From Malacoraja senta (Eukaryota), in assembly GCA_038087875.1 (NCBI GenBank), contig CM075991.1:5518001-5582000 (forward strand): a stretch of DNA of 64,000 nucleotides. Direction: 5' to 3'. Each line of letters begins with the position of its first letter. Within the stretch, counting starts at the first letter, position 1. The translations under genes were made by a program, and so were the position numbers. Under the pieces are notes generated by a model that was given only the letters and a program-made list of their open reading frames with translations, was not told the DNA's origin and made no database searches. Positions 2,318 to 2,830 of the stretch are shown one piece after another.

Positions 2318-2830
2318 TGTGAAAAATATACATCCTCTAGATGCGCTGGGACGCATCCTCAGTGGTGTGACCTGGGATCATCGGGTGTTTCGGGTCTCAC
2401 AACATCAGACACCCTCGCTCAGGCGACCCAGCCGGGGTTGATCAGGCCCCGACTTGCGTCCCAGCAGCAACCGCCCACAGATCAGCCATCTTAATAACTA
2501 CTCTGCAGGGGTTGGGAGACTCTAGTGCGTGGAGGGACTTGGGCTCTGTGGGGTGAATCCCGACTGGGCTCACCAGGTTCAAGGCCCTGTGCACTGCACC
2601 TCTTTCTCCTTCTCCAAGCATTTCATTCCCGCCTGATGGATTTTTAGGCCACGGTGGTTCATTAGGCCTTTCCGTAGCTTTGTTAGGTGTCTTTCTCACG
2701 AAAGACACAGACTGGGGTGCTAACCCAGCCTGTCCCGGGTGCCGTCTTTCCGTGCCGTCAACTGTCTCTCCAGTAGTCACCAAACTATTCTTGGTTGTCA
2801 CCCAGTCTATTCCTAGGTGCCACTGGCTGA
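2318..2830 (-). mobile_element. Internally deleted HERO/NeSL-like (restriction-like endonuclease group) non-LTR element
   Basis: Minus strand reads MNHRGLKIHQAGMKCLEKEKEVQCTG (N-terminal zinc-finger remnant), joined to a C-terminus IKMADLWAVAAGTQVGA* and a structured 3' UTR. No RT between them. Family assigned from recalled motifs. Confidence 0.6.

Follow-up and report, generated by a model that had tools for sequence, protein, structure and literature searches.

A k-turn that probably braces a type-SGC hammerhead in the 3′ UTR of HERO/Zebulon-like retrotransposons

Introduction

Among described ribozymes, the type-SGC hammerheads come closest to the RNA analysed here; Eckert et al. (2023, PMC10085705) record no SGC RNA in the genomes of known organisms. 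The kink-turn (k-turn), the other structural component, bends RNA at an angle given as 50 degrees (PMC5061560). Published rules hold that −1b:−1n = C:G and 3b = C predict k-turn folding in Mg2+ alone (PMC8191799), and m6A at 2b is described as weakening ion-induced folding, more mildly than at 1n (PMC6779385).

The closest described host elements are non-LTR retrotransposons with a restriction-like endonuclease (RLE). Pufferfish Zebulon, a member of the HERO clade, was reportedly described by Bouneau et al. in 2003 as a partial-tandem element. HERO holds many non-specific RLE elements (PMC4640811). In the literature searched, which lay outside subscription papers, Repbase Reports and bioRxiv supplements, we found no ribozyme or k-turn described in HERO or Zebulon elements and no report of a k-turn-braced SGC hammerhead.

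Here we analyse two copies of such a motif in the window, the whole stretch of 64,000 nucleotides under study. The initial annotation had called a k-turn at 2371-2423, in the extension of stem III of a putative permuted hammerhead. We argue that a standard k-turn, probably one that folds in ions, braces a type-SGC hammerhead in the 3′ UTR of HERO/Zebulon-like RLE retrotransposons, a reading that we consider probable as a whole.

Results

Retrotransposon carrying the motif

Judged by the reading frames around it and by its relatives, the motif site is the 3′ UTR of a non-LTR retrotransposon with an RLE. ORFs upstream of metagenome loci encode a reverse transcriptase (RT; Pfam RVT_1), a CCHC knuckle and a PD..E..K endonuclease, and the relatives carry invariant C834, C837, H845, C850, D939, E954 and K970 in one ORF with the RT. 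A search with the C-terminal 277 residues of locus L045 retrieved 163 proteins; the named ones among the 120 listed come from teleosts, lancelets and bivalves, and a Tetraodon polyprotein (P0014) is 61% identical over this region. Tentatively, we take the retrotransposon to be a Zebulon-like member of the HERO clade. The HERO/Zebulon trait of partial tandems without a fixed target was also found, the 3′ flanks being diverse in four of four sequencing runs.

The copy that holds the motif (copy 2, 2318-2866, minus strand) is internally deleted, with the last ORF codons joined directly to the 5′ UTR and zinc-finger N-terminus. Along the minus strand it begins with a remnant of the element's own 3′ terminus (2842-2866; alignment score reached by 4 of 3,000 shuffles), which lies before the 5′ UTR as in a partial tandem. 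Next come the 5′ UTR and the N-terminal zinc-finger region of this retrotransposon, the latter frameshifted (2505-2841; blastn, and tblastx to L045), then the last codons of the RT-RLE ORF (2445-2500), with the internal-deletion junction near 2495-2505. The stop codon (2444-2442) and the start of the 3′ UTR occupy 2424-2444, where a palindromic hexamer and a small hairpin are conserved. Beyond the motif, a terminal 5-bp hairpin (2330-2344) stands just before the 3′ end of insertions, and the element ends without poly(A) at 2318-2329, where loose contig ends agree at 0.36-0.47. In other copies unrelated flanks start at 2317/2318, and in the contigs of the sequencing runs the 3′ ends are sharp. 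The terminal hairpin was matched in 18 rows and shows three pairings of its two halves with no mixing, and so covaries. The chimeric 139-residue ORF of the window had no homologue among 324 candidates and is a junction product.

Contigs of two runs bridge the deletion junction near 2495 (X1 records 3 and 4, X3 record 17), and loose ends behind 2495 run on into the endonuclease C-terminus. Because some contigs bridge the junction while others continue into the endonuclease, the short deleted form is a family of its own. Its unit of about 525 nt also occurs in tandems, with joints going back 525. This form is a candidate for an RLE-driven, retrozyme-like non-autonomous element; the short internally deleted elements (SIDEs) of R2 are likewise non-autonomous.

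The palindromic hexamer lies at or just after the stop codon, with the small hairpin next to it, in fish-type copies and in the distant relative L054 (window 2438-2444, minus strand; L054 3111-3118); it may serve as a site for dimerisation or for a protein. The 5′ ends of short copies pile up at this hexamer (copy 1; run X5). Copy 1 (369-501, minus strand) consists of the 3′ UTR only, from the stop codon, and adjoins an unrelated LINE fragment. By repeat comparison the two window copies are 92% identical over 136 nt.

The window also holds other repeats. Copies of a second non-LTR retrotransposon (RVT_1), presumably Rex1/Babar-like, lie at 5832-7517 (plus strand), 54051-55740 (minus strand) and 34155-35196, and two of them are 89% identical. 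MITE-like families of short inverted repeats are present in many copies, at 676-901, 3467-3563, 5016-5599 and many other places.

Sampling of the family

Family members were collected by a metagenome scan whose pattern comprised stem III, half of stem I and GAAA, leaving the k-turn positions and the CUGAnGA-containing block (block C) free. Stem III and the half of stem I are fixed by this pattern and therefore cannot covary in locus counts or in the alignment. The scan gave 30 loci, of which 23 are similar to the window copy; the seven without such similarity (L032, L033, L036, L038, L040, L041 and L042) were dropped as chance matches. Counts over 25 copies refer to the 23 loci and the two window copies. 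The covariation alignment has 22 rows, since L030, L031 and L034 are decayed downstream and were left out of it. Two pairs of rows, L023/L028 and L024/L029, have flanks in common and do not count as independent. Variation within four sequencing runs was read from contigs, with 40 of 83 variable rows listed.

A profile of the off-frame UTR translation, in which the 1b-2b codon is invariant, retrieved 208 proteins, of which 150 were listed. These off-frame translations (P0121-P0270) form at least 208 predicted-protein clusters and are probably spurious gene calls. In viral contigs all 19 of 19 pattern matches were chance, and none of 15 candidates from the protein scan was confirmed. Six contigs in prokaryote species-representative assemblies (L050-L055) carry pieces of animal-type RLE retrotransposons, probably through host or reagent contamination; three contaminated prokaryote assemblies contained no further 3′ UTR copy. 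Two more distant RLE relatives (L053 and L055, 25-28% identity) have no such motif after their stop codons.

The k-turn and its conservation

On the minus strand, the k-turn of copy 2 (2371-2423) has a distal helix (2423-2418 with 2376-2371), C at 3n (2417), G2n (2416), A1n (2415) and a canonical stem (2414-2410 paired with 2387-2383), followed by the bulge (2382-2380), G1b (2379), A2b (2378) and 3b (2377). Its canonical helix is at the same time the predicted hammerhead stem III. A plus-strand reading was rejected; the ORF, the G.A order and the hammerhead core all read on the minus strand. In copy 1 the k-turn lies at 422-474 with one canonical pair broken. The consensus that the initial annotation had drawn from the two copies is correct, each copy having its own departures from it. 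Those of copy 2 are at 2419, 2377 and 2365, where about 99% of contig depth has another base in all four runs, whereas copy 1 is mismatched at 422 and has G facing G at 435 within the canonical stem. With a stem-breaking change in each, both window copies are probably inactive.

Scanning both strands of the window (128 kb) for five canonical pairs and at least five of six distal pairs gave two matches, the motif itself counted, and allowing four canonical pairs gave seven; dinucleotide shuffles of the element contained the pattern in 7 of 5,000 cases. In a single copy the pattern is only moderately rare and, taken by itself, would be no more than suggestive; the claim of a k-turn rests on the family comparison. 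RNAfold found no significant fold in the two window copies (z −0.56 and −0.50), as expected because the structure contains sheared pairs and pseudoknots, and an Rfam search of the window at gathering thresholds gave no match.

The search pattern left all four G.A positions free, and across the 25 copies G2n is retained in 21/24, A1n in 25/25, G1b in 24/25 and A2b in 23/25; of the three changes at G2n, two fall within a CpG. Neighbouring positions vary: bulge position L1 reads G10 A10 C4 U1, L2 reads A17 G6 U1 C1, L3 is U in 22, and 3n reads U10 C9 G3 A2. In the 22-row alignment, four of the six distal pairs change on both sides with 94% of cells paired, and none of 500 shuffles reached the pairing, the both-side changes or the covariation score of the whole structure; the number of pair types was ordinary (113 of 500 shuffles). 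L1 varied in 15-89% and 3n in 14-65% of depth in the four runs, and no G.A position appears among the 40 listed variable rows of the 83. In the peptide survey, with 150 proteins listed, the bulge codon gives 17 different residues (the commonest in 38 of 140), and the codon after the bulge is GAN in 119 of 134. This GAN result is supporting evidence and not independent, as the profile favours that residue.

The family thus has a 3-nt bulge followed by G1b.A1n and A2b.G2n, flanked by helices of which the distal one covaries and the canonical one is compensated solely in L054. We looked for free variation of the G.A positions among copies, which had been named as evidence against the motif, and they do not vary freely. 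A second k-turn register was rejected because it requires GA at L1-L2, which is found in a minority of copies. Together these data support the earlier k-turn call on the minus strand, with the G.A positions kept across 25 copies, and a k-turn is very likely present.

In the family, −1b:−1n and 4b:4n are C:G, and 3b is C in 19 of 25 copies. By this sequence the k-turn probably folds in metal ions alone. Because published rules predict ion-only folding for it, the gating by SNU13/15.5K that the initial annotation had raised is disfavoured, and L7Ae-family proteins would nonetheless be likely to bind the predicted k-turn, as they do other k-turns.

A type-SGC hammerhead around the k-turn

Blocks S and G of the predicted hammerhead (2383-2414, minus strand) follow the block order given in PMC10085705. 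Stem III pairs 2414-2409 with 2388-2383 and the predicted cut falls between C17 (2408) and 2407; the 5′ strand of stem I (2407-2402), one side of stem II (2396-2392) and G12-A13-A14 (2391-2389) follow. Block C (2350-2368, minus strand) consists of the 3′ strand of stem I (2368-2363, with the private mismatch at 2365), CUGAnGA (2362-2356), an extra U (2355) and the other side of stem II (2354-2350).

Block C was left free in the scan and reads C3 in 21/21, U4 in 21/21, G5 in 20/21, A6 in 22/22, G8 in 21/22, A9 in 20/22 and G10.1 in 21/21. N7 is free (U13 A4 G3 C2, one of the G counts coming from misalignment at a deletion in L039). The codon at position 17 encodes S75, Y50, F7 and C6 among 147 peptides, that is, C and A far more often than U and G. 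This ranking agrees with that of hammerhead cleavage efficiency at the position. G12 reads A in 32 of 146 peptides (GAR 96, AAR 32), which CpG decay would explain.

The defining SGC features are therefore found: the core CUGAnGA, GAAA (fixed by the DNA pattern), UH with H not G, the free N7, and the S-G-C block order with stems I and III, one pair covarying in 3 of 22 rows. Stem II is weaker, with a G-C pair, a pyrimidine mismatch at 10.2/11.2 and then three pairs at 90%. C replaces U10.4 in 4 of 20 rows, facing an A that never varies, and A replaces G10.3 in 4 of 21, with one compensation. The published descriptor asks for at least two contiguous stem II pairs beyond G10.1-C11.1, which this family lacks; as re-coded here, the strict descriptor matched none of 24 loci and neither window copy. 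A relaxed version recovered 15 of the 24 family loci, missing the other nine and both window copies, and had no match in 288,454 control bases. The fourth helix that joins distal stems I and II in described SGC ribozymes is absent: no covariation supports the candidate pairing, whose 5′ side already belongs to the k-turn helix. The cut-site bases (2407-2410, minus strand) are complementary to the invariant stem II side 2394-2397, a possible inactive hairpin during transcription.

We conclude that the fold is very probably a type-SGC (non-circularly permuted) hammerhead whose stem III is the canonical stem of the k-turn. The earlier suggestion of a permuted hammerhead thus gains support in this specific form, through the core, the block order and the exchange of stem I in L054. 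From this pattern of conservation, catalytic activity in live elements is likely.

A distant relative and the geometry of the fold

L054, on a contig of a bivalve-symbiont assembly, is 47% identical at the amino-acid level, and its core follows the stop codon in the corresponding position. In stem I every one of the four pairs is replaced on both strands, giving a fully complementary 4-bp stem, and stem III has one compensated pair; in stem II only G10.1-C11.1 pairs. A core-only descriptor, loosened after L054 had been seen, matches it and was found in none of 20,000 shuffles and nowhere in 288,454 control bases. This one decayed copy has neither the k-turn nor the linker from stem III to stem I. 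Because L054 keeps the hammerhead core without a k-turn, the k-turn appears to be a lineage-specific solution and not a universal need.

In copies with the k-turn, 11-15 nt connect stem III to stem I, 12 of which belong to the bulge, the G.A pairs and the distal helix. We estimated the geometry in a rough two-dimensional model with 2.8 Å per pair, a k-turn angle of 50 degrees and the usual stem I angle of 30-60 degrees. The gap between stem III and stem I came to 59-68 Å when straight and 15-26 Å when kinked. Two to three bases span only the kinked gap, and a bend would therefore be needed to link the two stems, as the initial annotation had supposed and as this rough model supports (59-68 Å unbent against 15-26 Å kinked). 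The strand leaving stem III would pass through the k-turn and meet stem I after two or three unpaired bases. The k-turn would thereby replace the extra stem I/II helix of the viroid-like SGC ribozymes.

Tandem arrays, 3′ ends and proposed role

In L045 and L054 the 3′ UTR directly precedes the 5′ UTR and ORF start of the next unit, head to tail, and P0016 reads through the UTR of an upstream unit. Joints run from 2842-2844 back to 2318-2320 in three of four runs. Behind 2850, loose ends carry the 3′ terminus again, and the window retains the 25-nt remnant of it at 2842-2866. TTTTCACA was considered as a target-site duplication and rejected, being the element's own 3′ end repeated. The letters beyond the 3′ end (2317-2318) resemble the start of the 5′ UTR of the next unit, like the Penelope 'tail'. 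This resemblance hints that priming takes place internally, a few bases beyond the terminal hairpin.

On the simplest reading, by analogy with Penelope elements (PMC11167929), tandem read-through RNA might self-cleave slowly into unit-length, possibly circularisable RNAs, and reverse transcription might begin at an internal point, shortly after the terminal hairpin. A role of the ribozyme in processing such read-through transcripts is the weakest step of the model, and we give it an even chance. Among the 24 rows listed (with 737 further rows) there were no loose ends at the predicted cut site. In run X5 ends accumulate instead around 2443, roughly 40 nt upstream of the cut, the point where copy 1 also has its end. 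Partial units lying upstream frequently reach beyond the cut, examples being L045, L054 and P0016. Uncut multimers or re-ligated circles would both fit this end pattern.

Discussion

Readings other than an active, k-turn-braced hammerhead were also weighed. The k-turn could be real and the hammerhead-shaped RNA a silent or vestigial scaffold, which the RT-RLE protein recognises to start target-primed reverse transcription past the terminal hairpin. Such a scaffold would suit the precise 3′ ends about 90 nt downstream of the predicted cut, the uncut junction kept in inserted copies and the weakness of stem II, and for a Penelope element PMC11167929 describes hammerhead cleavage as dispensable in vitro, with no reads ending at the cut site. 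We nevertheless consider it unlikely. The free N7, the avoidance of G at position 17 and a core retained from fish-type copies to L054 despite complete exchange of stem I together form the pattern expected under selection on catalysis, and recognition and catalysis are compatible with each other.

A real ribozyme switched by the k-turn, which would fold only with SNU13/15.5K or another L7Ae-family protein or be tuned by m6A at A2b, seems to us improbable. The majority of copies combine 3b = C with −1b:−1n = C:G and carry either C or U at 3n, which by the published rules means ion-only folding, and the C:C form shares its key pairs with the crystallised Actinomyces-1 k-turn (PMC8191799). The idea draws on the binding of L7Ae-family proteins by k-turns (PMC5061560), on a stem II that could need help, and on A2b falling in a DRACH site when 3b = C, where methylation would weaken ion-induced folding (PMC6779385). 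L045 and L046 (2 of 24 copies) moreover have a Watson-Crick 3b:3n pair and are predicted to fold poorly in ions. Very improbable, finally, is the view that there is neither k-turn nor hammerhead, only simple hairpins (over CUGAnGA or in an alternative G.A register) made alike by slow sequence change. Minimum-energy folds are indeed non-significant and contain no pseudoknot, and the sequence also permits a 10-bp hairpin closing over the core as well as another k-turn-like register; but the core hairpin was rejected as it does not covary (79.8% paired against 79.6% in shuffles, 251 of 500), the L1-L2 GA of the second register occurs in a minority of copies, and the distal helix covaries around fixed G.A pairs.

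If the k-turn-braced hammerhead is confirmed, it would be the first genomic, host-assigned type-SGC case within the literature searched, carried by a widespread animal retrotransposon and of a kind whose copies standard descriptors miss. A natural hammerhead built on a k-turn would represent a new solution to the permuted topology, and the k-turn would offer a handle (Mg2+, L7Ae/15.5K, m6A) for switchable ribozymes. The partial-tandem structure of RLE elements becomes testable, with a bearing on gene-insertion tools of the R2 family. A wider picture, in which an active SGC hammerhead, braced by a k-turn in the fish lineage, is conserved across an animal RLE clade from fish to bivalves and yields ribozyme-cut unit-length or circular RNAs that are primed internally, is tentative and, in our judgement, somewhat doubtful. 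If true, it would account for the partial tandems and turn the 525-nt deleted form into an RLE-driven retrozyme; the viroid-like SGC ribozymes would also gain a connection to a genomic retroelement.

The locus can be set beside several known systems. It resembles the type-SGC/HRIMA-1 ribozymes of Eckert et al. in the order of site, GAAA and CUGAnGA and in the short link between stems I and II, shares with the SGC descriptor the extra U before G10.1, and has stems I and II similar in letters, by eye from the oligonucleotides, to those of the tested SGC-1 and SGC-2 (PMC10085705). As described in that source, the SGC ribozymes come solely from metatranscriptomes, where they occur in virus-like RNAs, and a fourth helix joins their stems I and II; here the context is an animal genomic retrotransposon, a k-turn sits on stem III, and the pyrimidine mismatch at 10.2/11.2 fails the descriptor. 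Among k-turns, the nearest match that we can cite is Actinomyces-1 (PDB 7EAF; Huang et al. 2021, PMC8191799), which likewise has a 3-nt bulge and tandem G.A/A.G pairs, and whose crystallised form has −1b:−1n C:G, 3b:3n C:C (or C:U here) and 4b:4n C:G. By the rules in that paper, the C:C form of the family is predicted to belong to the N1 class with ion-induced folding. Unlike Actinomyces-1, the k-turn proposed here has as its canonical helix a ribozyme stem in a eukaryotic retrotransposon UTR.

As an element it is like HERO and Zebulon in its single ORF with N-terminal zinc finger, RT, CCHC knuckle and RLE, in its tandem structure and in having no fixed target seen. Penelope-like elements and non-LTR retrozymes, as described in PMC11167929 and bioRxiv 10.64898/2026.07.22.740005, share tandem or partial-tandem arrays, a hammerhead in the repeated UTR, an internal start of reverse transcription and short non-autonomous derivatives, but theirs is a GIY-YIG endonuclease with type I hammerheads, in contrast to the RLE protein and SGC fold here. 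R2 (PMC3774820) is likewise an RLE retrotransposon, in which a ribozyme releases the RNA from a co-transcript, as is proposed here; its ribozyme, however, is of the HDV-like class at the 5′ end, and R2 is rDNA-specific. Each part of the structure is already known, and it is their combination that is new.
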